A stretch of 64,000 nt of DNA from Hyphomicrobiales bacterium (GTDB taxonomy: Bacteria > Pseudomonadota > Alphaproteobacteria > Rhizobiales > TMED25), in contig JBMYRO010000001.1 of NCBI GenBank assembly GCA_049602435.1, positions 62,456 to 126,455 of the forward strand, given 5' to 3'. The position numbers and the translations under genes are program-made. Of this stretch, positions 3,126 through 17,990 are shown one piece after another. The notes under the pieces are model-generated. The model was not told the DNA's origin, did not search any database, and saw only the letters and a list, made by a program, of their open reading frames with translations. The number at the start of each line of letters is the position of its first letter. Within the stretch, counting starts at the first letter, position 1.

Positions 3126-4454
3126 TTGGATAATATGAGCCTTGGACTAACAAATTTAACTAAATTAAACCAAGTTCAAAGTCTCTCTCCTCAGGCTCAA
3201 CTTACAATAAAATTATTGAGTTTGAACAATGCTGAACTTGAAAATTTTCTTGAAAAAAAAATAGAAGATAACCCACTTCTTATTGAAAAAGAATCTTCAG
3301 CAAAGGACGACCTTCAAGTCCAACCATTCACAGATAAATATACAAGAAATTCTCTCGATCTAGGTATTTTAAATAATGTCAGTTATTCAATGTCATTAAG
3401 AGAGCATCTTATTGATCAGCTTGCAATTTCTAATCTTAATGCCACAGAAAAGATAATTTCAAATTATTTAATCAATACACTAGATGACGCGGGGTATATT
3501 GTAGAAGAAGAAGAAAAAATTTGCCAAACACTTGGCATTGATCTTGATTTTTATAACTCAGTTTTGACAAAACTTCAGAGTTTTGAACCAACGGGTGTTT
3601 TTTCAAGATCACTGAAAGAATGCCTATCGTTGCAACTCACCGAGAAAGGTCTATTAAATAAAAAATTAAGCCATCTACTCAATCATATACAATTACTAGC
3701 AGATGATAATTTTAAGAAAATACTGCAAATAATGAATATTTCAAAAGAAGAACTTTTTGAGTTAATCAAAATAATTAGGAAATGCAATCCTAAACCAGGA
3801 CTTAATTATTCGAAGGATACACTTGAAGTAATTACGCCTGATATAGTGATTAACAAAAACGAAAGTGGTATGTATGCCATTAAATTAACTCAAAATTATT
3901 TTTCTAATATAATTATTGATGAGACTTATAGTGACATTATTCAGAATAAAGTTAAAAAGAACGACTTCTTATATGGTCACTACACAGAAGCAAAAATGAT
4001 TTTGATCAGCATAGCTCAGAGACAAAAAACATTACTGAAAGTTGCATATGAGGTTATGTTACAACAACGTGATTTTCTTGAGAATGGTATTAATTTCATG
4101 AAACCATTAAATCTAGATAAAATTGCTAAAATTACAAATCTACATATCTCAACAGTTAGCAGATCAATCCAAAATAAATTTATTGAAACACCCCGTGGAA
4201 CCTTCGAAATGAAATATTTCTTTGACTCAGGGATCTCAAAGAAAAACTCTAACGAAGAAATATCATCCAAAACTATAGAAAACAGAATAAAAGAATTGAT
4301 AAAAAATGAAAAACAAGATGATATTTTATCTGATGATAAAATAGTAAAATTATTAGAGGGGTATGATATAAAAATTGCCAGAAGGACTGTTGCCAAGTAC
4401 AGAACAAAACTTAGTATTTTACCATCATCAAAAAGAAAGAATAAGTTTTTGTAA
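3126..4454 (+). CDS. rpoN: RNA polymerase sigma-54 factor RpoN
   Basis: Region I reads LSPQAQLTIKLLSLNNAELENFLEKKIEDNPLL. An HTH (ISTVSRSIQNKFIETPRG) and the RpoN box ARRTVAKYR are present near the C-terminus. The TTG at 3126 abuts the lptB stop, and ATG at 3135 (MSLGLTN...) is an alternative start. Confidence 0.9.
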   Translation: MDNMSLGLTNLTKLNQVQSLSPQAQLTIKLLSLNNAELENFLEKKIEDNPLLIEKESSAKDDLQVQPFTDKYTRNSLDLGILNNVSYSMSLREHLIDQLAISNLNATEKIISNYLINTLDDAGYIVEEEEKICQTLGIDLDFYNSVLTKLQSFEPTGVFSRSLKECLSLQLTEKGLLNKKLSHLLNHIQLLADDNFKKILQIMNISKEELFELIKIIRKCNPKPGLNYSKDTLEVITPDIVINKNESGMYAIKLTQNYFSNIIIDETYSDIIQNKVKKNDFLYGHYTEAKMILISIAQRQKTLLKVAYEVMLQQRDFLENGINFMKPLNLDKIAKITNLHISTVSRSIQNKFIETPRGTFEMKYFFDSGISKKNSNEEISSKTIENRIKELIKNEKQDDILSDDKIVKLLEGYDIKIARRTVAKYRTKLSILPSSKRKNKFL

Positions 4455-4486
4455 TTATATATTTATATTTGAAGGAGTTTTTAATT

Positions 4487-5482
4487 ATGGTTACTAAGAT
4501 TGATATGCACACTCATGTTGCTCCAAGAGAAGCTGTAAAAGTTGCAGATAAAGGTGGAAATTGGCATGGAGTAGAGTTTTCTCGAGATCAAAATGAAAAA
4601 CTGACAACATCCTATGGTGGTGAAAAAATGGCATTACCGTGGCCAAGAAAGATGGAAACCCCACAAGATAGATTAAACTCGATGAGTCAAAGGAATGTCG
4701 ATGTTCATGTTCTAAGCATGAGCCCATTAATGCATTGGCATAAACTTGACAATGTAAATGCCAAATCTTATGCGATAGATGTAAATGATGATATCTCAGA
4801 CTATGCAAATATAGATAACGATAGGTTTCAGTCTCTATGTTTTTTACCTTTGCAGGATACAGATGCATCAATTTATGAATTGGAGAGGTGTGTAGTTTCA
4901 AAAAAGATGATGGGTGCAATGGTTGCCACAAATATCAACGGAATGGATTGGGATAACGATAAACTGTATCCGGTCTTAGAGGCTGCCAATAAATTGAAAT
5001 GTCTAGTTTTTTTCCATCCCACGAGGGGTAGGGCAAATTCATGGTTAAAAAATTATCATCTAAGAAATCTCATTGGTAACCCACTTGAAACAACTGTTGC
5101 TATGGCAAATATTATTTTTGGAGGCATATTGGATAAGTTGCCAGACTTAAACTTATGCTTTGCTCACGGGGGTGGCTTTATAAGACAAGGAGTTGGACGA
5201 TTTGATCATGGGTATAATGTGAGAGATGAGGCTAAAATGAATATTTCATCGCTCCCATCAGAATATTTAAAAAATTTCTACTACGATACCATAACCCATT
5301 CTGAGGATGGATTAAGAAACTTAATAGATATTGTAGGTATAGATAGAATTTTTCTTGGAAGTGACTACCCCGCAGACATGGGGGAGCCATACCCAGTTGA
5401 TTTTATTAATAATTCAACTCTGCTAACGAAGGTAGAAAAAGAAAAAATATTAAGCAAAAATATTTTACCTTTCTTAAAATAA
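4487..5482 (+). CDS. Amidohydrolase_2 family enzyme of the ACMSD type (non-oxidative decarboxylase/hydratase)
   Basis: Aligns by eye along its whole length with ACMSD-type enzymes: KIDMHTHV, RFQSLCFLPLQ, LKCLVFFHP, GNPLETTVAMANIIFGGILDKLPDLNLCFAHGGG, GRFDHGY and FLGSDYP. I prefer ATG 4487, which has a GAAGGAG SD 9 nt upstream, over the track's TTG at 4469. Confidence 0.85.
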   Translation: MVTKIDMHTHVAPREAVKVADKGGNWHGVEFSRDQNEKLTTSYGGEKMALPWPRKMETPQDRLNSMSQRNVDVHVLSMSPLMHWHKLDNVNAKSYAIDVNDDISDYANIDNDRFQSLCFLPLQDTDASIYELERCVVSKKMMGAMVATNINGMDWDNDKLYPVLEAANKLKCLVFFHPTRGRANSWLKNYHLRNLIGNPLETTVAMANIIFGGILDKLPDLNLCFAHGGGFIRQGVGRFDHGYNVRDEAKMNISSLPSEYLKNFYYDTITHSEDGLRNLIDIVGIDRIFLGSDYPADMGEPYPVDFINNSTLLTKVEKEKILSKNILPFLK

Positions 5483-5494
5483 TAAGGATAACAG

Positions 5495-5902
5495 ATGACA
5501 AATAATAAAAAACAAAATGACTTATCGAAAACTTTTGCTGAAAGGCGCAGTCATGTTTACCCAGCACACGAGTGGCTAGCTGAAAAATTTCCTGAATATG
5601 TGCAAATAATGCTAGATTTAGACTATGAAATAAGACAGAAAACAAAAATATTTGATGAAAAAATGCACGAATTATTTCATATAATTGCACTTGCTGTAAA
5701 AGGATCAAATCCTCATAACCAACAACACTTAAAAGCACACATAAAAAAAGGCCTACAATTAGGATTAGCGCCAGAAGAAATTGCTGAAGCTTTAATGGTT
5801 TGCGTCAACCCAGGTGGAGCTATGGTTCTTACATATAGTGTAACCTGCATGCTTGAAGCAATGGATGAATTGAAAAAAGAAGGTTGGGAAGAACCAAAAT
5901 AA
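5495..5902 (+). CDS. Carboxymuconolactone decarboxylase (CMD)/AhpD-like family protein
   Basis: 135 aa, all-helical. The AhpD/CMD-like core reads HELFHIIALAVKGSNPHNQQHLKAHIKKGLQLGLAPEEIAEALMV. An AAGGA SD is present and the gene starts 12 nt after the upstream gene. Confidence 0.75.
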   Translation: MTNNKKQNDLSKTFAERRSHVYPAHEWLAEKFPEYVQIMLDLDYEIRQKTKIFDEKMHELFHIIALAVKGSNPHNQQHLKAHIKKGLQLGLAPEEIAEALMVCVNPGGAMVLTYSVTCMLEAMDELKKEGWEEPK

Positions 5903-5920
5903 AATAAATTATTTATCTAC

Positions 5921-7024
5921 TTAAATATTAGCTAATGGAACCGGCTGACCCGTTTCTGATGCCTCAGCCATGGCTAAAGTTACAGCTAATGTCTGTCTTG
6001 CTTCTTTAGCTGTTGTTAGGTGGCATTTGGATCCTGTTGACTGTGCATCAAGCCATTCTTTAGTTTCATCGGCTATTCTTCCGAACATAATTCCATCAGC
6101 CCACTCACCCGATGATCTACTTCCCAAAAAAGCAAGTTTTAACTTTTGGTCTTCAGCATAAGCATTACTATAACCGTGCTCTGAATATAAAATTTGGTCC
6201 CTATGATCGTCATCAATTAAAATTACACCATCTCGACCCATAATCTCAAGTCTTACACTTTGTCCAGTTGTTGGGAAACCTCCTGGAAGCGCATAACAAA
6301 TATCAAATGAGAATACTGCACCTGTTGAATATTTTACCATAGTCAAGCTTATGTCATCTACGTCATAACCTTGATCTCGAAAAATAGTCCCATGCCCCAT
6401 GGCTTGGACTTCTACAGGTGAAACATCTGGACCCAAACACCAGCCTATATAATCAACATTATATGTTATTATATCAAGTATAGGTGTTGCCTCCGGGCAT
6501 CTTTTAAGTATTTCAAGCATATTTGTTCTTGTATTGTAAACGCGTGTCATTCCTCCAAGGATAGGACCCAATTTTCCTCTTGAAATCTCATCATGAGCTA
6601 CAAAATATTTTTGAAGAAATCTTTGCGAATAGCCAATTCTCAGATCAACTCCTTTTTCTTCTGCTAGTTTTGATAGCCTGTCACCATCTTCAATTGTTAA
6701 TGCAAGTGGTTTTTCAACTAGAACAGACTTTCCTGCATTAATAGCAGCCTCTACAGACTCTCTGTGCTCATCCTCTGGGGTTGAAACAATTATAACATCA
6801 ACATTAGGATCATTTATTACTTCATAGTTATCCGTTGTAAATCCATTTGCGTTAGTTGATTTTGCTAATTTTTCTGCAAATGACTCATTTACATCAGACA
6901 CTACGAGATATTTTACTGCTGAATGAAGTGCAGCAAGTTTGGCTCTATGTGTTCCAATCCTACCCGAACCTATTACGCCGACACCTATCTGTCTTTTCTT
7001 ATAACTATTGCCTGATATTATCAT
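5921..7024 (-). CDS. Gfo/Idh/MocA family NAD(P)-dependent oxidoreductase
   Basis: N-terminal Rossmann IGVGVIGSGRIG and an EKPLA motif (VLVEKPLALT). Its ATG overlaps the TauD-like stop (ATGA at 7021-7024). Confidence 0.85.
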   Translation of the reverse strand: MIISGNSYKKRQIGVGVIGSGRIGTHRAKLAALHSAVKYLVVSDVNESFAEKLAKSTNANGFTTDNYEVINDPNVDVIIVSTPEDEHRESVEAAINAGKSVLVEKPLALTIEDGDRLSKLAEEKGVDLRIGYSQRFLQKYFVAHDEISRGKLGPILGGMTRVYNTRTNMLEILKRCPEATPILDIITYNVDYIGWCLGPDVSPVEVQAMGHGTIFRDQGYDVDDISLTMVKYSTGAVFSFDICYALPGGFPTTGQSVRLEIMGRDGVILIDDDHRDQILYSEHGYSNAYAEDQKLKLAFLGSRSSGEWADGIMFGRIADETKEWLDAQSTGSKCHLTTAKEARQTLAVTLAMAEASETGQPVPLANI

Positions 7025-8046
7025 GCTACTGCTCTTTTAGGTATTCCACCCCTTTCTACATATGAGTATCTCTCCATAAGCTCAGGTGCTAAGCTTCTCC
7101 TGTATTCTACTGGAAATGATATCCACATGCGGAGTAAATGCCTTTTCAATTTTGGATCATCATAATCTTCATAATCCTCTCTAGCATGCAATATTTGGTG
7201 ATTATTGATAAACTGAATATCTCCTTGCTGAAATCCCATTGATAATCTGAGAGATTCTCGTTCACTTATCTCTTGAACAACATCCAATGCTTCTCTTTGG
7301 AGGTCTGTTAGTGCAAGGTGCTCGCCATGCCTTACAACAGACTCAAAAAATGCTCTTGATGTGATTCTTGATGTTAGTTTGCCATCATGGTAACTGAACA
7401 TAGGGCATGTATACCATGGTTGTTCCCCTTCCGGGTTCTCTCCTCTCCAATCAAGATTGAATGGCTTATGTAATACTTCAATTAGATCAGGTCTTTCTTT
7501 TCTCAAGACATTATGAATGGTAAGTGCAGATACTAAATAACTTGCCCCTCCTTTTTTAGCTTTTCTTTGACAAAACAAACCAACCACATCCACTGGTAAT
7601 TGGTCGGAATGGAAATCCATTTTGAGTTTGGTCTGATACATTCTAGTTGTAGGATCTGATATCGATTTGCCTTCATCTGTAACATGCCCGAGTAAGTGAC
7701 CTCTTGTATTTTGAGATACAGGGGTACCCAAATGGATACCAATCCCCCAATAAATTAGTTCACACTCTTCGTCAGTGTATTTATCTCTATCAATTCCCCT
7801 TAACAAGATAAAACCAAGCTGGTTTTCTAAAATATCATATAGTGAATGGATTTTTGTTGATAATGTTGGTAGTATAAAATCTTCTTTGTTAAATGGTATT
7901 TTAATGTCATTTTTTTTAATATTTTTGAGCGCAACATCTATTTCTTCTAGTTCTACTTCAGTAAGATGTAGCAACCATTCATTTGAATTTTGGATTTCAG
8001 GTCCTACCCAAGCCGCTCTCTCAATCACATCACTTTTTAATACCAT
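7021..8046 (-). CDS. TauD/TfdA-family Fe(II)/2-oxoglutarate dioxygenase
   Basis: HxD facial-triad motif (DFHSDQ) and a distal His/Arg region (NNHQILHARED...RHLLRMW). I prefer ATG 8046 (MVLKSDV...), 2 nt after the TerC stop, over the track's start at 8112, which lies inside terC. Confidence 0.8.
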   Translation of the reverse strand: MVLKSDVIERAAWVGPEIQNSNEWLLHLTEVELEEIDVALKNIKKNDIKIPFNKEDFILPTLSTKIHSLYDILENQLGFILLRGIDRDKYTDEECELIYWGIGIHLGTPVSQNTRGHLLGHVTDEGKSISDPTTRMYQTKLKMDFHSDQLPVDVVGLFCQRKAKKGGASYLVSALTIHNVLRKERPDLIEVLHKPFNLDWRGENPEGEQPWYTCPMFSYHDGKLTSRITSRAFFESVVRHGEHLALTDLQREALDVVQEISERESLRLSMGFQQGDIQFINNHQILHAREDYEDYDDPKLKRHLLRMWISFPVEYRRSLAPELMERYSYVERGGIPKRAVA

Positions 8047-8048
8047 AT

Positions 8049-8735
8049 CTAAACTTCCTTTTTTCTTGCCTTCGTTAATATGCGCGCTGTTACAATAACT
8101 AGAACAGCACATGCCACAGATCCAATAAAACCATTTTCTTCATTCATGAATGTAAATATAGCCTGAGTACCAATATCTGTAAATAATAGATGACCAGAAA
8201 TCCAACCTAATAGTCCCCCACCAAACCAAATAAGTATTGGATACTTCGTGAAAACACTCAATAGAAAAGAACTTCCAATAAATAAAAGAGGGATTGCTAA
8301 GACTATCCCAAAAATAATAAGTGGAATTGATCCATGCGCTGCGGCTGCAACTGCAAGGACATTATCTAAACTCATTGCTGCATCAGCAACCGCAATTGTA
8401 AATATTACCTTGATTAATGTTTTTGCTTCACCTTTGTCTTGATGATGATCCTCTTCTTCGGGTAAAATTAATTTTATAGCGATCCATAGAAGCAGAATTC
8501 CACCGATTGTCCTTATATATGGCACATCCAAGATTAATGTAACTATACTTGCAAAGATAATCCTGAGTAATATTGCGGTAGCTACACCAAAAACCATACC
8601 AATTTTTTTTTGGTTTTCAGGCAATCCTCTACAGGCGAGTGCAATTACAATTGCATTATCACCACTTAGTATGAGATCAATCCAAACTATTTGAAGGATA
8701 ATAACCCAATCAATTGTACCTAAGAATGACTCCAT
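8049..8735 (-). CDS. TerC/YjbE-family integral membrane protein
   Basis: 228 aa, polytopic. It carries the duplicated TerC signature (LILSGDNAIVIAL and AAMSLDNVLAVAA). Confidence 0.8.
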   Translation of the reverse strand: MESFLGTIDWVIILQIVWIDLILSGDNAIVIALACRGLPENQKKIGMVFGVATAILLRIIFASIVTLILDVPYIRTIGGILLLWIAIKLILPEEEDHHQDKGEAKTLIKVIFTIAVADAAMSLDNVLAVAAAAHGSIPLIIFGIVLAIPLLFIGSSFLLSVFTKYPILIWFGGGLLGWISGHLLFTDIGTQAIFTFMNEENGFIGSVACAVLVIVTARILTKARKKEV

Positions 8736-8758
8736 TTAATATTTACTCCAATTCAGAG

Positions 8759-9808
8759 TCATAAAAAATCGTTCCTAGGTAAAGAAACTGGTTCACCAAG
8801 CTCAACTGATAAGTCTGCAGCTTGATATACTTGCATAACTAATTTGGCTTCTTCTGCAGTTACCATAACAGGAGTATCAAAAACTATTGAATTTATAAAA
8901 TGATTTATCTCTTCATGCATTGAACCTGCAAAAACATGATCTATTTGTTCCCCTGGCATTGATGATAGAGGATACCTGATTCCATCCTTTGTGGTGTTAA
9001 GCTGTATATCCTTGTGTGAGTCATCAATTGTAAGTGTACCATCAGTTCCAACAATTTCTATGAATGCTTGAACATAATTAGGGTAGCCAATTGGAAGAAT
9101 CCAACCAATTCCAATTGTGATAGTGGTCCCATCATCCATTGTAATCATTACCCATTGATGATCCGGAGTCTCACTTTTTCGTGAAAATAATTTTCCTGAA
9201 GTTTGAGAGTATACTCTAATTGGTTTTCTTGGTTGCATTGCCCACAGGACAAAATCTAAATCGTGCACACCTGCAATCGATGTAGGTGACATTTTTGATC
9301 TCCCAGTAATCTTTTCACCAAGTTCTCTTGTTGAGTTCCTTGATATAAGACAAGTAACAGGATCACCTATGAGACCTCCCTTTAATGCTTTATTGATATA
9401 CGCATATCTCGGGTCAAATCTTCTGGAGTAACCTACAGTCATCTTTAAATTATTTTTACTTGCAAGTTCAAGAGCTTGATCAGTTTCAGCAATTGTTGGT
9501 GCAATTGGTTTTTCTACAAAAACATGTTTCCCTTTCTCCAAACATTCCATCACAATTGGGAAACGAACTGTTTCTGGTGTCATAGAAATGACAATAGCAT
9601 CAATTTCTGGGTCACCTGCAAGTTCTCTCCAATCATTAGTAATTCGATCAGGTTTTAACTCTTTTTTGAGCTCCTCCACTCTACGCTCGTCTATCTCTGC
9701 AATAGATAACTGGTCAATTAGGGGATTTTTTCGGCAAGCTGCTGCTCTAATACCGCCAACCCATCCAGCACCAATTACGGCTACATTTATTTGATTTAAC
9801 TTTGCCAT
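8759..9808 (-). CDS. Gfo/Idh/MocA family NAD(P)-dependent oxidoreductase
   Basis: Rossmann motif VAVIGAGWVGGIRA and an EKP motif (VFVEKPIAPT). It is the first gene of the minus-strand unit. Confidence 0.85.
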   Translation of the reverse strand: MAKLNQINVAVIGAGWVGGIRAAACRKNPLIDQLSIAEIDERRVEELKKELKPDRITNDWRELAGDPEIDAIVISMTPETVRFPIVMECLEKGKHVFVEKPIAPTIAETDQALELASKNNLKMTVGYSRRFDPRYAYINKALKGGLIGDPVTCLISRNSTRELGEKITGRSKMSPTSIAGVHDLDFVLWAMQPRKPIRVYSQTSGKLFSRKSETPDHQWVMITMDDGTTITIGIGWILPIGYPNYVQAFIEIVGTDGTLTIDDSHKDIQLNTTKDGIRYPLSSMPGEQIDHVFAGSMHEEINHFINSIVFDTPVMVTAEEAKLVMQVYQAADLSVELGEPVSLPRNDFL

Positions 9809-9855
9809 TTAGAAAATAAATTCAATTTAAAAACAAAATCACTTTAACATAGAGT

Positions 9856-9944
9856 AATTAGTTTTCATTAAAAAAAATTAGATTTTAATGAAAATTAGGA
9901 TCTATTGACAATAGGTTGAATTATTGCAAATATTGAAGTTTAAT
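9856..9944. promoter_or_regulatory. Divergent control region with a candidate operator palindrome and sigma-70-like boxes
   Basis: A perfect inverted repeat TTTTCATTAAAA (9862-9873) / TTTTAATGAAAA (9883-9894) is separated by 9 nt. AATTAG occurs three times (9856, 9876, 9893). TTGACA lies at 9905-9910. TTGAAT (9916-9921), 17 nt, then TTTAAT (9939-9944) lies upstream of the ATG at 9974. Confidence 0.35.
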
Positions 9945-9973
9945 TATCTAATAGATTTCTGGGGGGAACACAA

Positions 9974-11350
9974 ATGGATATAGCTCAAACATATGCTAAG
10001 TATACAAAAGAACTTAAATATGATGATCTACCAGACGATGTAGTGGATCATGCCAAAAAATTAATTCTTGATATAATGGGAAATGATATAGGGGGCTATG
10101 AATGGATGGAATCTGGGCCCTCAATACTTGATGGTATTAGAACAATCAACAGAAATGCAAAAGGTGCGACTGTATTGGCTACTGGTGAACAGATGGCTCC
10201 AGAATGGGCATCGTTTGCAAATGCGTCAATGGCACATAGTTTGGATTATGATAATCATCATGCGAAAGGCGTGATTCATGCTGGAGGAAGTGTTATAAAT
10301 TGTGCCCTAGCTGTTGGAGAAGAAAATAACCTCAGTGGGAAAGAATTAATAACATCTGTTGTGATTGGTTATGAAATTGCTTGCAGGTTAGCAATGGCAT
10401 TAGGACCACATTCATCGCATGAAATGGGTTTCCACCCAACAGGAACATGCGCAACTTTCTCTGGCTCTGCAATAATTGGTCGAGCTAGAAAAATGTCTGA
10501 AGAACAAATTGTCAATGCTATGGGATTAAATGGATCCCAAGCTGCGGGATCGATGCAATATGTTGTAAATGGAGCCTGGAACAAAAGAACTCACCCAGGA
10601 ATTAACACTCACTCAAGTTTTATTGCAGCTACACTTGCTCAGTCAGGTTTTATTGGGGCAGCAGAGGTATTTGAAGGTAAACAAGGTTTCCTCCAAGGCT
10701 ACGCATTAAGACCAATACCAGAGAATGCAACCAAAACACTTGGTAAAAGTTATGAAACACTCGAAAATGCGATTAAACCATTTCCATTATGTCGTTATAA
10801 CCACCAAACTCTTGATCTCGTAATTGATTATCAAAAAGAACACAACATCGACACTAAAAGGATTAGTAAAATTGTTATTGATATGCCGACTTATGGTGTG
10901 CAACTATGTGGCTCTCCTATTGAGCTTAAACGTAACCCAAAATCTCCAGTTGATGCTCAATTTTCAGGGTGTTTCGCAGCAGCTTTAGCTTTAACTGAAA
11001 AAAGAGCAGATATGCAAACCTTTACAGCAGTCCTGGAAAAAGGTATGACCGATGAATTTAGGAGATTATTATCAATAACTGATATTAAACAAGCTGATGA
11101 TCTAGATGCAATTCATCCTGAATTCTGGCCGGGCAGGATTACAATGACAATAGATGATGAAGATGTTGAACTATACGGGAAGCACATGCGAGGTGAAAAA
11201 GAACGTCCAATGTCAATTGAAGAAGTACAAGATAAATTTAGAGATTTAAGCCCAAACCATGACAGTAAAAAATTAGATGAAGTGTTTAGTGTTATCAATG
11301 ATCTGGAAAACGCTGATATTGATGACTTATTATCACCACTTAGAAAATGA
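9974..11350 (+). CDS. MmgE/PrpD family protein (2-methylcitrate dehydratase-like fold)
   Basis: 458 aa. The family-typical N-terminus reads YAKYTKELKYDDLPDDVVDHAKKLILDIMGNDIGG, with full-length resemblance to the family. A GGGGGGA SD is present. Confidence 0.85.
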   Translation: MDIAQTYAKYTKELKYDDLPDDVVDHAKKLILDIMGNDIGGYEWMESGPSILDGIRTINRNAKGATVLATGEQMAPEWASFANASMAHSLDYDNHHAKGVIHAGGSVINCALAVGEENNLSGKELITSVVIGYEIACRLAMALGPHSSHEMGFHPTGTCATFSGSAIIGRARKMSEEQIVNAMGLNGSQAAGSMQYVVNGAWNKRTHPGINTHSSFIAATLAQSGFIGAAEVFEGKQGFLQGYALRPIPENATKTLGKSYETLENAIKPFPLCRYNHQTLDLVIDYQKEHNIDTKRISKIVIDMPTYGVQLCGSPIELKRNPKSPVDAQFSGCFAAALALTEKRADMQTFTAVLEKGMTDEFRRLLSITDIKQADDLDAIHPEFWPGRITMTIDDEDVELYGKHMRGEKERPMSIEEVQDKFRDLSPNHDSKKLDEVFSVINDLENADIDDLLSPLRK

Positions 11351-11372
11351 TAACATAACAGGAGTTATATGA

Positions 11373-12473
11373 ATGTTTAAGATTGCAAAAATTGAAGCAT
11401 GTGCTGTTGCTATTCCACTAAAAATGCCTATTAAAATGTCTGGGATACTTATTGAAACATGTGATAATTTAGTTGTAAAAGTAACAGATTCAGATGGAAA
11501 TGTTGGCTGGGGTGAAGCATCATCAGCACCAACAATGACAGGTGAAACTGTTGAAGGACTTGTTGCTGCAACGAAATTTATGGCAGACAGACTCCAAGGA
11601 ACTGAGGTTACAAGTAATGATGAGTTAGTCAATCTTATTGAACCTCTAATGGTAGCAAACCATAGCGCAAAATCAGCGATTGATGGCGCATTATATGACC
11701 TGATTGGTAAACATTTAAATAAACCAATGTATGAAATTCTTGGAGGAAAAAACCGTGAAAATGCACCTATGTTTTGGATGATCGCAGGAAGCAGTGATGA
11801 ACTTGAATTAGCTAAAGCAAGAATTGATGAGGGCTATGTTGCATTCAAAGTTAAAGTTGGTATGAATGAGCCTTCACACGATCTTGATAGATCAGAGAAA
11901 TCTAGAAAAATTTGCGGTGATAATGTCCATGTGTCCGCTGATGCAAACCAAGGTTACCGTCCAGAAGACGCTTTTATATTTGCAAAAGGAGCTGGTAAAG
12001 CCGGGCTTGATTTCTTTGAACAGCCTGTTCATGGTCATGACATAAAATCAATGGCAAAATGTGCAGAGTTATGTGAAGTTCCAATTGGTGCTGATGAAGG
12101 AATTCACTCAATTGAAGATATTCAGAAACACTATGACCAAAATGCAGCTATGGGTGGTAGCCTCAAATTGATAAAATTAGGAAGTGCACAAGGGGTAATG
12201 GAGGGAGCAAAATTAATGCAGAAATTATCAATGTCTGTAAATCTTGCTGGAAAAACTGCCGACACAAGTATTGCAAGTGCAGCAATTTCTCATTTAGCAG
12301 TTTCTCTTCCTACACTTGAATGGGATGCAAGTGTTACCAATCAATATCTAGTTGATGATGTAGCCAAGAACCCAATCCAAGTTATTAATGGAAGAATAAT
12401 TACGCCTGATGGCCCGGGACTTGGTATTGAAGTTGATGAACAAAAGATCGAACAGTATAAACGTGCAGTATAA
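11373..12473 (+). CDS. Enolase-superfamily enzyme (mandelate racemase/muconate-lactonizing subgroup)
   Basis: Capping domain GWGEASSAPTMTGE. Barrel motifs are FKVKVG (KxK), DANQGY, FEQP, ADEG and LKLIKLG. An AGGAG SD lies upstream. Confidence 0.85.
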   Translation: MFKIAKIEACAVAIPLKMPIKMSGILIETCDNLVVKVTDSDGNVGWGEASSAPTMTGETVEGLVAATKFMADRLQGTEVTSNDELVNLIEPLMVANHSAKSAIDGALYDLIGKHLNKPMYEILGGKNRENAPMFWMIAGSSDELELAKARIDEGYVAFKVKVGMNEPSHDLDRSEKSRKICGDNVHVSADANQGYRPEDAFIFAKGAGKAGLDFFEQPVHGHDIKSMAKCAELCEVPIGADEGIHSIEDIQKHYDQNAAMGGSLKLIKLGSAQGVMEGAKLMQKLSMSVNLAGKTADTSIASAAISHLAVSLPTLEWDASVTNQYLVDDVAKNPIQVINGRIITPDGPGLGIEVDEQKIEQYKRAV

Positions 12474-12479
12474 GTAAAT

Positions 12480-13460
12480 ATGACTGTTGTTAATATCGGT
12501 ATTCTTGGAGTTGGTAATTGGAGTAAAAAACTTGCAAGTACAATTCAAAATATTGATAATGCGAACTTGTTAACGTGCTTCAGCAGAACAAGTCATACAA
12601 GGGAGGAATTTGCTCAAAAATTTGGTTGTGAACCTGCAATATCCTTTGATAAATTCATGAATGATAGAAGGATAGATGGAATAATCATTGCTACTCCTCA
12701 TACAACACATGTAGATCTGATTTGTTCAATTGCTAAATGTAAAAAACACATTATGGTTGAAAAGCCATTAGCGTTATCAACCAAAGATGCAAAAAGATGT
12801 GTTGAAGTGACAAGGGCAAACAACGTACTCCTTCAAGTTGCTCACTACAGGAGATTATTACCAGCAACAAGGTTATTATATGATAATATCAGCAATAATA
12901 CTCTCGGGAAAATACATCTAATAGAAAGTAACTTTAGCCGACCCTTTGGACCGGATCCCAACAGGCCATGGAGGGACAATGAAATAGAAGCTCCAGCTGG
13001 TGCATTCACAGCACTTGGTGTTCATATGATTGATAATCTAATATATCTAGGTGGTGACGTACAATCTGTAAATGCATTAAGTAGTGTTTTGGATGAAGAT
13101 AATCCTCTTGATGACATTACATCTGTTCTATTAAAATTCAAAAACGGTGCGCATGGTGTTATCAATACCTCTTTGAGATTACCGTTTATTGCAAATCTAT
13201 GCGCTCAAGGTAATTTAGCCTCTGCCTGGAGCGAAGAGGATGGTCATAAGTTTTTCATTCAAAAAATAAATGAAGAAAAGAGAACAGAAGTTTCATTAAA
13301 TAAAATTGATGGTGTAGAACAGAATTTAAGAAATTTTTGTAATTCAATAATTCATCAAATAGAACCTGAAACAAATGGTGAAGAAGCCACAAAAGTTGTA
13401 AGAATCCTTGAAGCAATAGTTGAATCTTCGGCTAAAGATGGTCTTAGTGTTCAAATATAA
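12480..13460 (+). CDS. Gfo/Idh/MocA family oxidoreductase
   Basis: Rossmann motif IGILGVGNWS and an EKP motif (IMVEKPLALS). It starts 6 nt after the enolase-superfamily gene. Confidence 0.8.
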   Translation: MTVVNIGILGVGNWSKKLASTIQNIDNANLLTCFSRTSHTREEFAQKFGCEPAISFDKFMNDRRIDGIIIATPHTTHVDLICSIAKCKKHIMVEKPLALSTKDAKRCVEVTRANNVLLQVAHYRRLLPATRLLYDNISNNTLGKIHLIESNFSRPFGPDPNRPWRDNEIEAPAGAFTALGVHMIDNLIYLGGDVQSVNALSSVLDEDNPLDDITSVLLKFKNGAHGVINTSLRLPFIANLCAQGNLASAWSEEDGHKFFIQKINEEKRTEVSLNKIDGVEQNLRNFCNSIIHQIEPETNGEEATKVVRILEAIVESSAKDGLSVQI

Positions 13461-13644
13461 AATAATATCTAAATATACAAATTAGCATAGATTTTTACTT
13501 GTAACTTTTCATCTAAAATATTACCCGATTATTTCTTCAGATAAAAAAATTCGTGCTTAAATTATTACTTGCTATATCTAATCAATGGGACTATCGTGAA
13601 ATTTATGTATGCGGTATCAAACTATTTTTTAGGGAGAATATAAC

Positions 13645-14718
13645 ATGTTAAAAAATAGAAATTTATTTATGATTTGTGCGCTAGCGCTCACTTTCATAAT
13701 AACATCAGTGACTACTGCGTCAGCTGATAAAATTAAACTAAGAATTGCATCAGGTCATCCAACTGGAGTTGTCTATGCAGGGCTAATGCAAAGTTATTTT
13801 CAACCAATGCTAGCTGAAAGAGTGGCTGAGCGTACTGATCATGAGATCCAGTGGATTGAAGGATACAGTGGAACAATTGCTAAAAACCCAGAAGTTTTGG
13901 AAGCAGTTCAAAATGGTATAACAGATATTGGTGGAATGTGCTTCTGCTTTGAGCCATCAAACTTACCATTACATGCATTCCAAGTGATGCTGCCATTCGG
14001 TACAATGAATCCAATGACAAGTCTTAGAATTGCTCAAAGTGTTTATGCTCAGGAGCCATATCTGACTAATGTTTTTGAAGATGATTTCAACCAAGTTCTA
14101 CTTGCGAGGATAACAGACCAAGGGTACAACCTTGGTACAACATTCCCATGGAAAGATCTTTCAGAACTCGAAGGTGAAAAAATTGCTGGTGCCGGTCTTA
14201 ACCTAAATTGGCTAGACTATGCTGGTATTACACCTGTGCAAGGTACACTTTCAGAAGCATATACAGGTCTTCAAACAAACCTATATGAAGGTTGGGTAAT
14301 GTTCCCAAGTGCATGGGTTAACTTGAAGCTATATGAACATGGTGACCATTACACATTAATTGGTTTTGGTGCTATGACATGGCATGGCTTGACTATCAAC
14401 AAAGATTCATATGACAAACTTCCTGATGATGTTAAGGAAATATTACATGAAGTTGCAATGGAATATGAAGAACAAGTTGGTATTGTAAACAAAAGGGAAT
14501 ACCCACAACATCTTGACACACTCCGTGACAAGATCACTGTTACAGAACTACCAGCTGACGTAAGAGCTGCATGGGCTGAGTCTCTCGCTGATTGGCCACA
14601 ATCAGTAGCAAGCGACCTTGAATCAAAAGGCTTACCTGCAGTTAGAGTGCTAAATCTTGCACTTGATGCTGCTGAAGCTCAAGGGTACAAGTGGCCTGTT
14701 CGTTACGTTGTTGAATAA
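13645..14718 (+). CDS. dctP: TRAP transporter substrate-binding protein (DctP type)
   Basis: 357 aa with a signal peptide (ALALTFIITSVTTASA). It is followed by small and large TRAP membrane subunits. A GGGAGA SD is present. Confidence 0.8.
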   Translation: MLKNRNLFMICALALTFIITSVTTASADKIKLRIASGHPTGVVYAGLMQSYFQPMLAERVAERTDHEIQWIEGYSGTIAKNPEVLEAVQNGITDIGGMCFCFEPSNLPLHAFQVMLPFGTMNPMTSLRIAQSVYAQEPYLTNVFEDDFNQVLLARITDQGYNLGTTFPWKDLSELEGEKIAGAGLNLNWLDYAGITPVQGTLSEAYTGLQTNLYEGWVMFPSAWVNLKLYEHGDHYTLIGFGAMTWHGLTINKDSYDKLPDDVKEILHEVAMEYEEQVGIVNKREYPQHLDTLRDKITVTELPADVRAAWAESLADWPQSVASDLESKGLPAVRVLNLALDAAEAQGYKWPVRYVVE

Positions 14719-14733
14719 AACAATCTAAAAATT

Positions 14734-14760
14734 CACGAGGTGTCCAATGGGCACCTTGTG
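14734..14760 (+). promoter_or_regulatory. GC-rich intercistronic stem-loop between dctP and dctQ
   Basis: CACGAGGTGTCC-AAT-GGGCACCTTGTG forms a 12-bp stem (10 Watson-Crick pairs and 2 G-U) with a 3-nt loop. It starts 16 nt after the dctP stop and has no U-tract after it. Confidence 0.6.
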
Positions 14761-14783
14761 ATGTCAATATTACATAAAAGAAA

Positions 14784-15296
14784 ATGTATCTAGTTAAACT
14801 AAGTGATAAAATAGCAAAAGTAATGATGGTCATTGCTGCATTGTGGGCATTTTCGCTCGCTTTCCTTATTCTTGCTGATGCATTATCAAGAAGTTTTTTA
14901 AATATTCCTCTTAATGGAACAAAGGATATAGTCGAAAACTCAATTGTTGTGATTATATTCTTTCAAGCTGGCTATGCCATACGGTCAAGATCCATGCTTC
15001 AATCAGACATATTAATTTCACAGGTATCTCCAAAAGTAAAAAAAGCTCTTCTAATTATAGGATATTTGTTAGGTATGTTCTTCTTTTATGTCATGATAAC
15101 TGGTAGTTGGGACCTTGCTTTCCAAGCTTTTGCCAAGGGTGAATATGAAGGCGAGGGCGCATTAAAAGTCCCTACTTGGCCGACAAGGTTTATAATTATA
15201 TTTGGAAGTATTTTCTGCTTCATAAATTATCTGGTTCTTGCAATAGTAGATATTTTCAACATTGATGATGATGATAGTTGGGGTAACAATGCTTGA
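14784..15296 (+). CDS. dctQ: TRAP transporter small permease (DctQ type)
   Basis: 170 aa with four predicted TM segments. It lies between the DctP and DctM genes. Confidence 0.75.
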   Translation: MYLVKLSDKIAKVMMVIAALWAFSLAFLILADALSRSFLNIPLNGTKDIVENSIVVIIFFQAGYAIRSRSMLQSDILISQVSPKVKKALLIIGYLLGMFFFYVMITGSWDLAFQAFAKGEYEGEGALKVPTWPTRFIIIFGSIFCFINYLVLAIVDIFNIDDDDSWGNNA

Positions 15297-16626
15297 ATTT
15301 GAACTAATACTTATAGGCTTACTTCTATTTTTTGTAGCTATCGGTGTACACATTGTTATTGCATTGGGGGTAACTGCAGTACTTGGTGTTTATTTTGCAT
15401 TTGGCGATTTTGAGATGGTCCAAAAATTGGTAGGAAGTACATCATATGAAGGACTTCGTAATTATGTTTTCGCTGTTATCCCGCTATTCATGTTAATGGG
15501 TGAATTTATAAGTAAGTCAGGAACAATTACTGATGTATACAGAGGAATTCAAAGAGGATTAAGAAAGTTACCCGGTAGGCTTGCACTTGCGACTGTGATG
15601 GGTAATGCAATATTCTCATTTGTGACAGGTGTATCAATAGCATCAGCTGCTGCTTTTACGAGAATTGCATATCCTGAAATGAAAAGACACCGATACAATA
15701 ATGGTTTCTCACTTGCATCAATAACTGGATCTAGCGTTCTCGGTATGTTAATTCCACCAAGTGTTCTAATGATCGTTTGGGGTATTTTAACAGAAAGATC
15801 TATTGGTCAGATATTCCTTGCTGGTGTTATTCCAGGATTATTACTTACTGGTTTATTCATAGTCTACATACTTTGTGCTGCATTAATTATGCCAAAACTA
15901 GTTGGTTTAAACAAAGATGGCACACCCATTGAAGTTGTTGATCAAAAAGAAGATGTAGATTTGGAAACACAGGGTAGTGTTTTATGGAGCTCAATATGGC
16001 TATTTGGAATAATAGCAACTGTTTTAGGTGGTATTTGGGTTGGATTTTTCTCTCCTACTGAGGGAGCAGGTGTAGGAGCTGCATTGGGATTAATATTAGC
16101 AATTTCAAAGGGTGCTACGCGAAAAGATATCATTGGAACTATATTATCAGTGGGAAGAACTTCAGCACCAATACTCTTGCTGCTTCTGACTGCATCTCTT
16201 TACTCAAGATCACTTGCTATGACTGGTGTTACTTCAACCATACAAGACTTGTTCCTTTCCACAGGATTTGGTTATGTAGGTATTGTACTCTTAATGATGC
16301 TCATATGGTTCATCTTGGGGATGATAATTGATAGTATTTCTATAATGCTTCTAACCGTTGCAATATTTGAACCTATTGCTGTGTCATTAGGAATTGAGCC
16401 ATTTGCATTCGCAATAATAGGAATCATCGCTATTGAAGCAGGACTATTAACACCACCATTTGGTCTGTTAGTCTATACCGTAAAGGCGTCCGCAAGAGAT
16501 AAAGATGTGAGACTTGGTCAGATATTCTATTATTCAATACCTTATTGGATCATAATGTTGTTCACTGTAGTGTTGTTGCTTCTATTCCCAGGAATTGCAA
16601 CATTCTTACCTAATCTATTATTTTAA
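15289..16626 (+). CDS. dctM: TRAP transporter large permease (DctM type)
   Basis: Polytopic membrane protein of about 445 aa. I prefer ATG 15289 (MLEFELILIG...), which overlaps the dctQ stop (ATGCTTGA). The track's start at 15262 (MMMMIVGV) lies inside the dctQ C-terminus. Confidence 0.85.
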   Translation: MLEFELILIGLLLFFVAIGVHIVIALGVTAVLGVYFAFGDFEMVQKLVGSTSYEGLRNYVFAVIPLFMLMGEFISKSGTITDVYRGIQRGLRKLPGRLALATVMGNAIFSFVTGVSIASAAAFTRIAYPEMKRHRYNNGFSLASITGSSVLGMLIPPSVLMIVWGILTERSIGQIFLAGVIPGLLLTGLFIVYILCAALIMPKLVGLNKDGTPIEVVDQKEDVDLETQGSVLWSSIWLFGIIATVLGGIWVGFFSPTEGAGVGAALGLILAISKGATRKDIIGTILSVGRTSAPILLLLLTASLYSRSLAMTGVTSTIQDLFLSTGFGYVGIVLLMMLIWFILGMIIDSISIMLLTVAIFEPIAVSLGIEPFAFAIIGIIAIEAGLLTPPFGLLVYTVKASARDKDVRLGQIFYYSIPYWIIMLFTVVLLLLFPGIATFLPNLLF

Positions 16627-16640
16627 AAATTAATATTTGA

Positions 16641-16716
16641 TGGTGCCCTGACCTAGATTTGAACTAGGGACACAACGATTTTCAGTCGTTTGCTCTACCA
16701 ACTGAGCTATCAGGGC
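16641..16716 (-). tRNA. tRNA-Phe (anticodon GAA), CCA encoded
   Basis: The reverse complement folds as a cloverleaf: GCCCTGA-TA-GCTC-AGTTGGTA-GAGC-A-AACGA-CTGAAAA-TCGTT-GTGTC-CCTAG-TTCAAAT-CTAGG-TCAGGGC-A-CCA. Confidence 0.95.
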
Positions 16717-16766
16717 ACAGTGTATGTTTACACAAGAATATTTATATGAACTTTTTTATGAGAAGT

Positions 16767-16961
16767 CTAGTGATCTTTTTTTAATATATCACTTAATTCT
16801 ATATCGTCATAAATGGCATCATCAGTGATCTTTTCACCAGGAATATAATACCTTCCCGACAACCAATTACCTAAATCTTTATTAGCACACTTATCTGAAC
16901 AAAAAGGTGCATGTTCACTTTGAGATTTATTTTTGCATATTGGACAGTTTTTATTATTCAT
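16767..16961 (-). CDS. yacG: DNA gyrase inhibitor YacG (zinc-finger protein)
   Basis: 64 aa with a CPICKN...FCSDKC zinc ribbon and NWLSGRYYIPGE, typical of YacG. Confidence 0.85.
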   Translation of the reverse strand: MNNKNCPICKNKSQSEHAPFCSDKCANKDLGNWLSGRYYIPGEKITDDAIYDDIELSDILKKDH

Positions 16962-17006
16962 AGCCTATATTAGTATTTTTTTTATCATTGATGATGACTC
17001 ATAGTT

Positions 17007-17414
17007 TTAATTAACAAAATATTCCCTAATACCAGAACTTGTTCCATCGTTTAGTATAAGTTTTATTGAAACTTTTTGAGTGGATGGTGGAATTATACGA
17101 AACTTTTCTATGTCCTTTACCTGTCCATTGCACATTGGAAGCACTAATATATTATTTGGTTGTGAGTCATTTATCCCATATCTAACTTCTTTTATTGAAC
17201 ATCTATTTTCTATTAGATATTCAAACCTAATTATTAGATTAGAGTCCTGAAAATCAAAGACCAACCATGACTCTTTACTACTTAAATTTTGTTTGTGATT
17301 AGTTGTTAACTGAAATAAAAAAGAAAATAAGATTATTAATAGGATAATAAATAAAATTTTATATTTATTATTTTTAAAAATATTACTTCTCTTTCCATCT
17401 ATATTTGACGTCAT
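17007..17414 (-). CDS. Hypothetical membrane-anchored protein
   Basis: ORF with one N-terminal TM helix (ILFIILLIILFSFLF) and a soluble domain of about 95 aa with 2 Cys. I recognise no family. I prefer ATG 17414 (MTSNIDG...), which still overlaps the maf 3' end by 32 nt. The track's start at 17483 lies deeper inside maf. Confidence 0.5.
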   Translation of the reverse strand: MTSNIDGKRSNIFKNNKYKILFIILLIILFSFLFQLTTNHKQNLSSKESWLVFDFQDSNLIIRFEYLIENRCSIKEVRYGINDSQPNNILVLPMCNGQVKDIEKFRIIPPSTQKVSIKLILNDGTSSGIREYFVN

Positions 17415-17988: not shown

Positions 17989-17990
17989 AG

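Follow-up and report, generated by a model that had tools for sequence, protein, structure and literature searches.

A modular catabolic locus between rpoN and tRNA-Phe in OCS116-type bacteria, with an arginine-less TRAP solute-binding protein

The enzyme families that meet in the locus discussed here are known from described systems, such as the dioxygenolysis of sulfoquinovose, the cleavage of aromatic rings and the breakdown of L-rhamnose and L-fucose, and the comparison with these systems is the starting point for reading its function. The locus is a catabolic cluster of 12 genes located between rpoN and a tRNA-Phe gene in a stretch of 64,000 nucleotides from a Hyphomicrobiales bacterium (positions 62,456 to 126,455 of contig JBMYRO010000001.1, assembly GCA_049602435.1; hereafter, the window). 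It encodes an ACMSD-type amidohydrolase_2 (AH2), a small protein of the carboxymuconolactone decarboxylase family (CMD), three Gfo/Idh/MocA oxidoreductases (Gfo1, Gfo2 and Gfo3), an Fe(II)/2-oxoglutarate dioxygenase (TauD), a TerC membrane protein, an MmgE/PrpD-family protein (PrpD), an enolase-superfamily enzyme (MLE) and the subunits DctP, DctQ and DctM of a transporter of the tripartite ATP-independent periplasmic (TRAP) type. That the cluster exists, is intact and has closely spaced genes was confirmed: the listing of open reading frames (ORFs) in the window, with a minimum of 80 aa, the Pfam and NCBIfam scans and ARAGORN all agreed with the 12 genes, families, junctions and rpoN and tRNA-Phe borders given in the initial annotation, and the same genes in the same order occur in more than 20 independent OCS116-type contigs, a recurrence that argues against chance. 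The window consists of low-GC DNA, which at the protein level shares 97-98% identity with marine metagenome-assembled genomes (MAGs) that bear the label Hyphomicrobiales or Rhodobiaceae and 84-87% with MAGs and single-cell genomes labelled OCS116 cluster. To collect relatives of the locus, PrpD was searched against a set with one genome for each species and TauD against metagenomes. As detailed below, the locus is a mosaic of four modules (AH2-CMD, Gfo2-TerC-TauD-Gfo1, PrpD-MLE-Gfo3 and DctPQM). The function that we tentatively place first, giving it somewhat less than an even chance as a whole and much less for any single step, is that of a CoA-independent oxidative and decarboxylative funnel for a non-acidic, hydroxylated, sugar- or cyclitol-like compound, which may be substituted.

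The sulfo-ASDO pathway of Marinobacterium aestuarii and Marinomonas ushuaiensis (PMC10507154, PMC12951627) resembles the locus in that a TauD-family dioxygenase is encoded beside an NAD(P)H oxidoreductase for its carbonyl product, along with a TRAP transporter, in a marine setting. The differences are that the window TauD is FrbJ- and 7n7v-like, whereas the structure nearest to SqoD is At3g21360 (38.6% identity); that the partner enzyme is a Gfo/Idh/MocA oxidoreductase here and an aldo-keto reductase (SmoB/SquF) there; that a GntR regulator is present there and no regulator here; and that eight further genes of the locus have no counterpart. A sulfoquinovose dioxygenase was rejected as the identity of TauD, because, among solved structures, the protein matches only 7n7v and FrbJ and its partner is not SquF or SmoB, and the pathway is retained as an analogy. 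The tauD gene (7021-8046, minus strand; Pfam PF02668, E = 1.4e-36) encodes a TauD/TfdA-family dioxygenase of an FrbJ-like subfamily, its only solved relatives being 7n7v (1.2e-48) and FrbJ (1.6e-45), the latter of which we take to be a phosphonate-tailoring hydroxylase. The motifs FHSD (145), LHARE (286) and RHLLR (302) contain the HxD...H facial triad and the distal Arg, which presumably serves 2-oxoglutarate binding as in the rest of the family. The start codon of tauD is the ATG at 8046, two bases past the stop of TerC, and the ORF start at 8112 is not used. TerC (8049-8735, minus strand), encoded inside the tauD operon, is an integral membrane protein of the YjbE subfamily (TIGR03717, 213.6 bits against a cut-off of 134.8). 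The first gene of this minus-strand unit encodes Gfo2 (8759-9808; Pfam) and the last Gfo1 (5921-7024; Pfam GFO_IDH_MocA).

A second group of described systems comprises the beta-ketoadipate, chlorocatechol and protocatechuate 4,5-cleavage pathways. These have, like the locus, an MLE-type cycloisomerase (CatB/TfdD), a CMD decarboxylase (PcaC), a Gfo/Idh/MocA hemiacetal dehydrogenase (LigC), an amidohydrolase_2 hydrolase or hydratase (LigI/LigJ) and a TfdA-type oxygenase. The locus differs from them in that it contains no ring-cleaving dioxygenase, enol-lactone hydrolase, CoA-transferase or thiolase, and in that its MLE (11373-12473, plus strand; Pfam MR_MLE_N/C) stays far below the cut-off of the muconate cycloisomerase model TIGR02534 (183.8 against 334.95 bits). 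Furthermore, Pfam scans found no catechol or protocatechuate dioxygenase and no downstream pca or cat genes near MLE. The protein nevertheless belongs to the muconate-lactonizing subgroup of the enolase superfamily, since the motifs FKVKVG (158; KxK at 158-163), SADANQ (188), FFEQP (214), GADEG (239) and SLKLIK (263) provide the KxK motif, the D/E/D metal ligands and the second Lys, to which we assign the catalytic roles presumed for this subgroup.

The comparison of AH2 (4469-5482, plus strand; Pfam PF04909, E = 8.5e-29) with the human and Pseudomonas fluorescens ACMSD shows that the metal-binding and catalytic residues (HxH, His, His and Asp in the HMMER alignment) and the equivalent of Arg235 are kept. 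The human enzyme is also the best solved relative of AH2 (6e-53), and no NCBIfam family matched. Two positions differ, with Ala replacing Arg47, in a weakly aligned stretch, and His replacing Trp191; moreover, the ACMSD pathway partners 3-hydroxyanthranilate dioxygenase and aminomuconate semialdehyde dehydrogenase, and other kynurenine-pathway genes, are absent from the Pfam-scanned locus, where AH2 has CMD as its partner instead. Thus, we read AH2 as a putative metal-dependent decarboxylase or hydratase, apparently competent, whose substrate would differ from that of ACMSD. CMD (5495-5902, plus strand), which pairs with AH2, gives a borderline match to Pfam PF02627 (24.8 bits against a cut-off of 23), although orthologues that are 66-74% identical also match this family; there is no NCBIfam family match, and the lack of a CxxC motif makes the protein PcaC-like rather than AhpD-like. 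Judged by their conserved residues, AH2, MLE and TauD look catalytically competent.

PrpD (9974-11350, plus strand; Pfam MmgE_PrpD N and C domains) shares the two-domain MmgE/PrpD fold with IDS epimerase, cis-aconitate decarboxylase (IRG1), the Bacillus subtilis homologue of IRG1 and 2-methylcitrate dehydratase; among solved structures, that B. subtilis protein and IDS epimerase come closest, at about 1e-25. However, it scores 40.8 bits against a cut-off of 950 on the 2-methylcitrate dehydratase equivalog and has no prpB or prpC adjacent to it, and is therefore not a true 2-methylcitrate dehydratase; a PrpB-like gene, below its own cut-off, lies 28 kb away. For Gfo1, Gfo2 and Gfo3 (the last at 12480-13460, plus strand; Pfam), the best curated model is inositol 2-dehydrogenase, with 117.6-143.7 bits against a cut-off of 355, the match of Gfo2 (143.7 bits) being full-length, and the best solved relatives of Gfo1 are sugar or cyclitol oxidoreductases. 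Catabolism of myo-inositol by an iol pathway does not fit, as the Pfam scans found no other iol families in the locus and the IolG match stays at 143.7 of 355 bits. The non-phosphorylative pathways that oxidise sugars and uronates, LRA1-6 for L-rhamnose and L-fucose and Udh-Gli-Gci (PMC10444878), likewise contain a sugar dehydrogenase and enzymes of the amidohydrolase and enolase superfamilies, and related clusters add FAH and HIBADH genes. In contrast to these pathways, AH2 belongs to the decarboxylase (ACMSD) branch and not to the lactonase branch, MLE is not an acid-sugar dehydratase equivalog, and PrpD, TauD and CMD would have no role there. The L-ascorbate pathway, considered for its enolase, amidohydrolase and decarboxylation steps, was rejected because the families that we take to belong to it (cytochrome b561, gluconolactonase, WD40-like and PdxA) do not match.

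None of the catabolic proteins of the locus reached the cut-off of an NCBIfam equivalog, their solved relatives are distant, and a literature search on this family combination and on OCS116 genomics retrieved no relevant paper; within these searches, nothing assigns the cluster a function. The earlier statement that the combination matches no characterised pathway was upheld to that extent. The locus is a catabolic gene cluster built from known superfamilies, in which the PrpD, TauD and AH2-CMD orthogroups have no assigned function.

Nearly all DctP-type proteins (96.8%) carry an arginine that acts as the selectivity filter for carboxylates, and the exceptions bind atypical ligands, as reported for Csal_0678, which binds ethanolamine, and for Tp0957, which has Ala and a hydrophobic pocket (Fischer et al., PMC4646407). 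DctP of the locus (13645-14718, plus strand; Pfam PF03480) is encoded together with DctQ, the small membrane subunit (14784-15296, plus strand; Pfam PF04290, E = 5.9e-23), and DctM, the large membrane subunit (15262-16626, plus strand; Pfam PF06808, E = 7.1e-75), whose translation probably begins at an ATG codon within 15265-15289. In HMMER alignments with five solved DctP proteins, their conserved Arg faces Ala, within the stretch GEKIAGAG, or, in one alignment, a gap. The motif K(I/V)AGAG is present in 119 of the 120 DctP orthologues, including those of Roseibium, Labrenzia and Mameliella isolates, and EGW(I/V)MFPS is near-invariant. DctP thus resembles Csal_0678 and Tp0957 in missing the conserved Arg (with Ala as in Tp0957) and in belonging to the approximately 3% minority of the family, but it has no sequence relationship to either at E <= 1e-3 and forms a separate alphaproteobacterial subfamily. 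This subfamily is unusually conserved, with 65-73% identity between the OCS116 proteins and those of Roseibium, Labrenzia and Mameliella and about 150 invariant columns among 26 sequences, including C99, C101 and many aromatics; an AlphaFold model based on 26 orthologues had a mean pLDDT of 48, which is too poor for a fold search.

Since DctP has Ala at the position of SiaP Arg147, it is unsafe to conclude from the presence of a TRAP system that the ligand is a carboxylate or sulfonate, as the initial annotation had done. The same conclusion is weakened by the replacement of the TRAP genes in one OCS116 lineage and by the occurrence of 70% identical orthologues in unrelated neighbourhoods. The latter are found in Roseibium and Mameliella; the neighbours of DctPQM there are genes for a GntR regulator, a Zn-dependent dehydrogenase and a DHDPS-family protein, and PrpD, MLE, TauD and AH2 are absent from the vicinity. 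The Roseibium Zn-dependent dehydrogenase gives sub-threshold matches to L-threonine 3-dehydrogenase (206.2 bits) and scyllo-inosose 3-dehydrogenase (197.5 bits), and a Mameliella Gfo protein, encoded about 6.6 kb from dctP and 42% identical to Gfo2, has IolG as its best match, also sub-threshold. Taken together, these neighbours give hints of a polyol or cyclitol ligand.

From the observed gene content, conservation, modularity, active-site residues and Arg-to-Ala replacement, we infer a possible substrate class, the chemical steps and the sharing of one substrate, or of a few related ones, among the modules. DctPQM, with a binding protein that lacks the arginine clamp, would import a ligand other than a classical carboxylate. 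The three IolG-like Gfo enzymes could oxidise a hydroxyl or hemiacetal group of a sugar-, cyclitol- or polyol-like skeleton to a ketone or lactone and, further on, lead to a carboxylate. TauD may hydroxylate a carbon that is either unactivated or carries a leaving group, or may remove a substituent by oxygenolysis, and the resulting carbonyl would be processed by Gfo1, whose translation is coupled to that of TauD; this step is modelled on the logic of SqoD and SquF in sulfoquinovose dioxygenolysis. TerC is a conserved partner, to which no role is assigned. On the acids so formed, MLE and PrpD could carry out proton-abstraction chemistry, such as cycloisomerisation, beta-elimination, epimerisation or dehydration, and AH2 and CMD might then decarboxylate or hydrate the product to an oxo-acid of central metabolism.

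A number of findings weigh against this funnel. No characterised orthologue stands behind any of its steps, and the matches to inositol and sugar enzymes are all far below the curated cut-offs. The families of AH2, CMD, MLE and PrpD typically act on unsaturated polycarboxylates, so that an organic acid as the starting compound would fit the later steps equally well. In addition, the gene set varies among lineages. OCS116 lineage A has the full set, as in the window, whereas lineage B (loci L006, L007, L008, L009, L010, L021, L054 and L057) has no TRAP genes and carries instead a gene for a 300-aa HIBADH-type dehydrogenase that reaches the tRNA-Phe gene (13503-14405 in L006); its best matches, both below the cut-off, are 2-hydroxy-3-oxopropionate reductase and L-threonate dehydrogenase. 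The OCS116-like lineage C (L058, L059 and L066, the last at 6062-8182; rpoN 41% identical) has no PrpD, no Gfo3 and no remnants of them. It retains the MLE and TRAP genes, with MLE first after the divergent promoter region; a weakly glutaredoxin-like 136-aa ORF lies between MLE and dctP. The modules also occur on their own: PrpD (72-76%), MLE (68-73%) and a short-chain dehydrogenase/reductase (SDR), with or without a Gfo gene, stand alone in three unrelated contexts (L035, L037 and L047), TauD-Gfo1 alone in L049, TerC-TauD-Gfo1 in L060, a contig with a GC content of 0.66, and the TRAP module alone in L042 and L043. Finally, in L065 (8499-14729), a TauD homologue that is 56% identical is encoded beside a canonical, Arg-bearing DctPQM, which suggests that the substrate of TauD may be anionic. 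On the other side of this TauD gene, a TAXI-type TRAP system is encoded, consisting of an NMT1_3 binding protein and a fused 822-aa membrane protein.

These variants show that the 12 genes are not the single unit proposed at first. The locus is a mosaic of four modules, each found alone elsewhere, and one lineage does without PrpD and Gfo3; the absence of these two genes from lineage C and of the TRAP genes from lineage B means that the parts need not serve one substrate. TauD-Gfo1 is conserved in L024, L049 and L060, and the order TerC-TauD-Gfo1 is conserved in genomes with GC contents from 0.33 to 0.66.

The question of whether the modules belong together at all was addressed with the relatives outside OCS116. 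PrpD orthologues with 59-76% identity were found in MAGs labelled Acidimicrobiia, Nitriliruptorales, Verrucomicrobiales, Chthoniobacterales, Flavobacteriales and Bauldia, and 23 distinct non-OCS116 contexts were tallied by hand from tblastn results and called-gene tables. Within the DNA covered for these 23, TauD orthologues (50-65%) occur in 12 contexts, MR/MLE and AH2 genes in 14 each, and Gfo genes with an identity of 40% or more to any of the three Gfo proteins of the locus in 12, in varying order and orientation. In L040, an AH2-CMD pair (49% and 66%) lies within 8 kb of PrpD, TauD, MLE and Gfo, and Gfo3 orthologues (40-55%) adjoin PrpD in other phyla. Three of the non-OCS116 PrpD clusters contain HIBADH genes that group with that of lineage B at an identity of at least 40%. 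The larger non-OCS116 genomes add IclR regulators, family III CoA-transferases, enoyl-CoA hydratases (ECHs), FAH-family hydrolases and aldo-keto reductases, and the transporters beside the enzymes in other phyla are of the MFS or the CUT1-type ABC kind. PrpD homologues at 40-43% identity were set aside as uninformative relatives, since those checked occur in CoA-dependent contexts and apparently belong to another orthogroup.

Orthologues that come together again in several phyla, each time in a different order, are, as far as a tally without a background rate can tell, the mark of a functional guild and not of chance. The families are co-conserved across phyla, which is the outcome that the initial annotation had named as speaking against fortuitous adjacency. 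It is unlikely that four independent modules, acting on different substrates and sharing no pathway, have simply come to lie at a permissive or convenient spot of a compact genome. Such an arrangement would explain why each module is found alone elsewhere, why the lineages differ in the modules that they carry, why the PrpD and dctP units each have a promoter-like motif of their own, and why TauD occurs without PrpD in the five TauD-anchored contexts examined at 56-63% identity. It would not explain why the same families meet again in varied orders in several other phyla, why the AH2-CMD pair of L040 is close to the other enzymes, why the replacement HIBADH itself belongs to the distant clusters, or why the gene order in OCS116 has been kept to the point of saturation at synonymous sites.

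In two genomic contexts, covering L035 to L039, PrpD-MLE-SDR-Gfo is followed by the genes of a 2-oxoacid:ferredoxin oxidoreductase with two subunits, of 623 and about 328 aa (14843-17700 in L037), beyond which L037, L038 and L039 have CoA-transferase and ECH genes. The position of the oxidoreductase suggests that the product of the pathway may be a 2-oxoacid.

The model put forward in the initial annotation was the uptake of a polyfunctional organic acid by a carboxylate-specific TRAP system, followed by its oxidation and decarboxylation, with carboxylates of the muconate or ring-cleavage type in mind. Several observations agree with it: MLE and the MLE-like partners of PrpD in other phyla have muconate cycloisomerase as their best match (184-213 bits), AH2 is ACMSD-like and CMD PcaC-like, the relatives of PrpD act on tri- or dicarboxylates, the IclR, family III CoA-transferase, ECH and FAH genes are added in other phyla, and the TauD homologue of L065 stands beside an Arg-bearing TRAP system. 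However, the DctP of the locus is without the carboxylate clamp, the TRAP genes are dispensable in lineage B and stand in other contexts elsewhere, the locus contains neither a ring-cleaving dioxygenase nor an enol-lactone hydrolase or thiolase, no equivalog cut-off was reached, and three sugar-type dehydrogenases would have no obvious role on a pre-formed acid. On balance, we consider the organic acid model improbable.

Another explanation is that the locus serves the use of an organosulfonate, a sulfate ester or a phosphonate. In this case TauD would cleave a C-S, C-O-S or neighbouring C-H bond and release sulfite or sulfate, Gfo1 would take the aldehyde, TerC (or TauE/YeeE proteins elsewhere) would handle the oxyanion and the remaining enzymes the carbon skeleton. 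TauD belongs to the classic family of oxygenolytic desulfonation, for which SqoD-SquF-TRAP is a precedent (PMC10507154), and TerC-TauD-Gfo1 keeps its order over a wide range of GC contents. The only solved relatives of TauD presumably act on phosphonates, as FrbJ does, and a histidinol-dehydrogenase-like gene of the HpsN family occurs in four of the clusters. Sulfur-related neighbours were also seen beside the stand-alone PrpD-MLE-SDR genes, namely a TauE/SafE-family anion exporter gene in L047 (5440-6183, minus strand) and Sulf_transp (YeeE/YedE-like) and DUF302 genes in L035 (8202-9885) and L036; they may hint at the handling of a sulfur oxyanion, but they are few and possibly a coincidence. 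Further points against this explanation are that the search of solved structures with TauD returned no At3g21360-lineage (SqoD-type) structure, that the locus encodes neither a sulfite dehydrogenase nor Xsc, SuyAB or CuyA, that TerC proteins of the YjbE type are annotated as metal transporters, and that the TRAP arginine missing from the locus DctP binds sulfonates as well. A sulfonate, sulfate-ester or phosphonate locus is therefore decidedly unlikely.

The locus is a vertically inherited and strongly constrained part of the OCS116 core genome and not an island. In all of the more than 20 OCS116-type contigs it lies between rpoN and tRNA-Phe/maf/hisD, the order lptB-rpoN-AH2 being preserved throughout, and it is at the same site in lineages whose rpoN is 61-70% identical and, in one case, 41% identical. 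The presence or absence of the interval, proposed earlier as a check, thus gave presence in every OCS116-type contig recovered. The bulk G+C content is 0.35-0.39 in the cluster and 0.28-0.31 in the flanks, whereas the G+C content at third codon positions (GC3) is 0.21-0.30 and 0.20-0.25, respectively; the bulk excess is thus confined to the first two codon positions, and GC3 equals that of the flanks. In comparison with L005, L006 and L032, the identity at four-fold sites is about 0.3-0.45 and equally low in the cluster and in the flanks, whereas the cluster proteins are 74-90% identical, with the exception of Gfo3, the least conserved member between OCS116 lineages (59-64%). Among the flanking proteins, the identity is 43-69% for lptC, lptA, rpoN, maf and hisD and 76-82% for lptB. 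Saturated synonymous sites together with high protein identity imply vertical descent under strong purifying selection, with no recent transfer. A recent exchange among the OCS116 lineages was excluded as the source of the protein identity, since four-fold sites have diverged equally within the cluster and outside it, and a foreign origin deduced from the higher G+C was excluded because GC3 is native.

The end of the cluster at the tRNA-Phe gene had been described at first as a classic island position, a reading that the data do not support: the locus is ancestral, syntenic across the clade and native in composition. That it is an island acquired horizontally and integrated at the 3' end of tRNA-Phe is extremely improbable and, by the data above, refuted, even though the cluster abuts this 3' end and exceeds its flanks in bulk G+C. 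The earlier observation that no integrase and no tRNA-derived direct repeat are visible proved correct, since the family scans found no integrase or recombinase among the ORFs in 4469-17988, all of which belong to other families or to no family, and no repeat derived from the tRNA 3' end was present among the 20 largest of 56 direct-repeat families in 3000-18000. In all relatives the locus is at the same site, with a synonymous divergence equal to that of the flanks, and CMD, Gfo1 and TauD are next to rpoN in a distant relative too. In the latter (L049, a contig with a GC content of 0.61 and an rpoN that is 38% identical), the genes rpoN-hpf-ptsN precede, by no more than a few kb, a CMD with 74% identity, and the TauD (71%)-Gfo1 (69%) pair is on the opposite strand, in the same relative arrangement as in the window. 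The CMD/TauD-Gfo1 part of the locus thus appears to be older than the OCS116 clade. The hpf and ptsN genes found 3' of rpoN in L049 (15544-18456) are missing at that position in OCS116, where AH2 follows rpoN directly (3126-4468 in the window).

OCS116 bacteria are common in the surface ocean, and the longest related contigs, of 1.38 and 1.42 Mb, make their genomes appear small. The investment of about 12 kb of an apparently small genome, with a constraint on the proteins above that on most neighbouring housekeeping genes, suggests that the substrate matters in situ, and the presence of the enzyme set across phyla in marine, soil and wastewater metagenomes suggests that the compound is probably widespread. 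It is conceivable, if doubtful, that the locus and its relatives in Acidimicrobiia, Verrucomicrobiota and elsewhere represent a pathway that has escaped recognition although it is widespread in the environment, and that its substrate is an abundant non-acidic compound resembling a cyclitol or a sugar, which may carry a sulfonate or another substituent. The pathway would then include new reactions of PrpD, ACMSD-like/CMD and FrbJ-like TauD enzymes, and a DctP subfamily that has lost the carboxylate clamp in favour of a neutral ligand. Clusters without a named substrate are common. Naming the substrate of this one would give functions to the MmgE/PrpD, FrbJ-like TauD, ACMSD-like AH2 and small CMD orthogroups, and would add a route to models of the turnover of dissolved organic matter. 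It would also define the ligand of the arginine-less TRAP subfamily, which challenges the rule of organic acids as the cargo of DctP-type TRAP systems.

As for the expression of the locus, the genes are separated by 14 nt (rpoN-AH2), 12 nt (AH2-CMD), 22 nt (PrpD-MLE), 6 nt (MLE-Gfo3), 184 nt (Gfo3-DctP) and 14 nt (DctM-tRNA), and the minus-strand junctions are as first described, with gaps of 23 nt between Gfo2 and TerC and 2 nt between TerC and TauD and a 4-nt ATGA overlap between TauD and Gfo1, through which Gfo1 is translationally coupled to TauD. The divergent region between Gfo2 and PrpD (9809-9973) contains a conserved promoter-like element in an alignment of eight OCS116 genomes: ATTGACA at 9904-9910 is invariant in all eight, and the region matches TTGACA-N18-AATATT, with a suitably spaced -10-like element. 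The region 5' of dctP (13461-13644) has its own conserved promoter-like motif, CTTG(C/A)... TATCGT, in an alignment of seven genomes. Two of the four modules, the PrpD and dctP units, are thus preceded by conserved sigma-70-like promoter motifs, and none of the four has a local regulator. The interval had been called regulator-less, and Pfam scans of its ORFs indeed found none that matches a transcription-factor family; this is true yet unremarkable, as control by promoters alone is common in streamlined marine genomes. Control from sigma-54 promoters, considered because rpoN adjoins the cluster, was rejected, since matches to the consensus were not above chance and none was intergenic. The Rfam scan of 1-24000 found two tRNAs only, and no riboswitch 5' of TerC or elsewhere in that range.

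The left border, outside the pathway, is rpoN, the sigma-54 gene (3126-4454, plus strand; Pfam Sigma54_AID/CBD/DBD), which closes the flank lptC-lptA-lptB-rpoN. The right border is the tRNA-Phe (GAA) gene (16641-16716, minus strand; ARAGORN, and Rfam with 71.5 bits), whose 3' end points towards the cluster and which is at the same place in the relatives. It is followed by a small yacG, a conserved ORF, maf, hisD and an EPSP-synthase-family gene. The first of these encodes a 64-aa zinc-finger homologue of the DNA gyrase inhibitor YacG (16767-16961, minus strand; PF03884, 54.3 bits) and lies between tRNA-Phe and maf. A 158-aa ORF at 17007-17483 (minus strand) has no Pfam match and shares about 100 nt with the start of maf; its tblastn identity is 77-87% in close and 49-57% in distant OCS116 relatives, and it is probably a real gene with a later start. 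Farther away, ARAGORN called a tRNA-Pyl (CTA) at 40132-40211 (minus strand), wholly within a 284-aa ORF (39655-40509, minus strand) of the PEP-mutase/isocitrate-lyase family, which matches methylisocitrate lyase PrpB best, at 144.7 bits where the cut-off is 354; the call is most likely a false one in AT-rich coding DNA.

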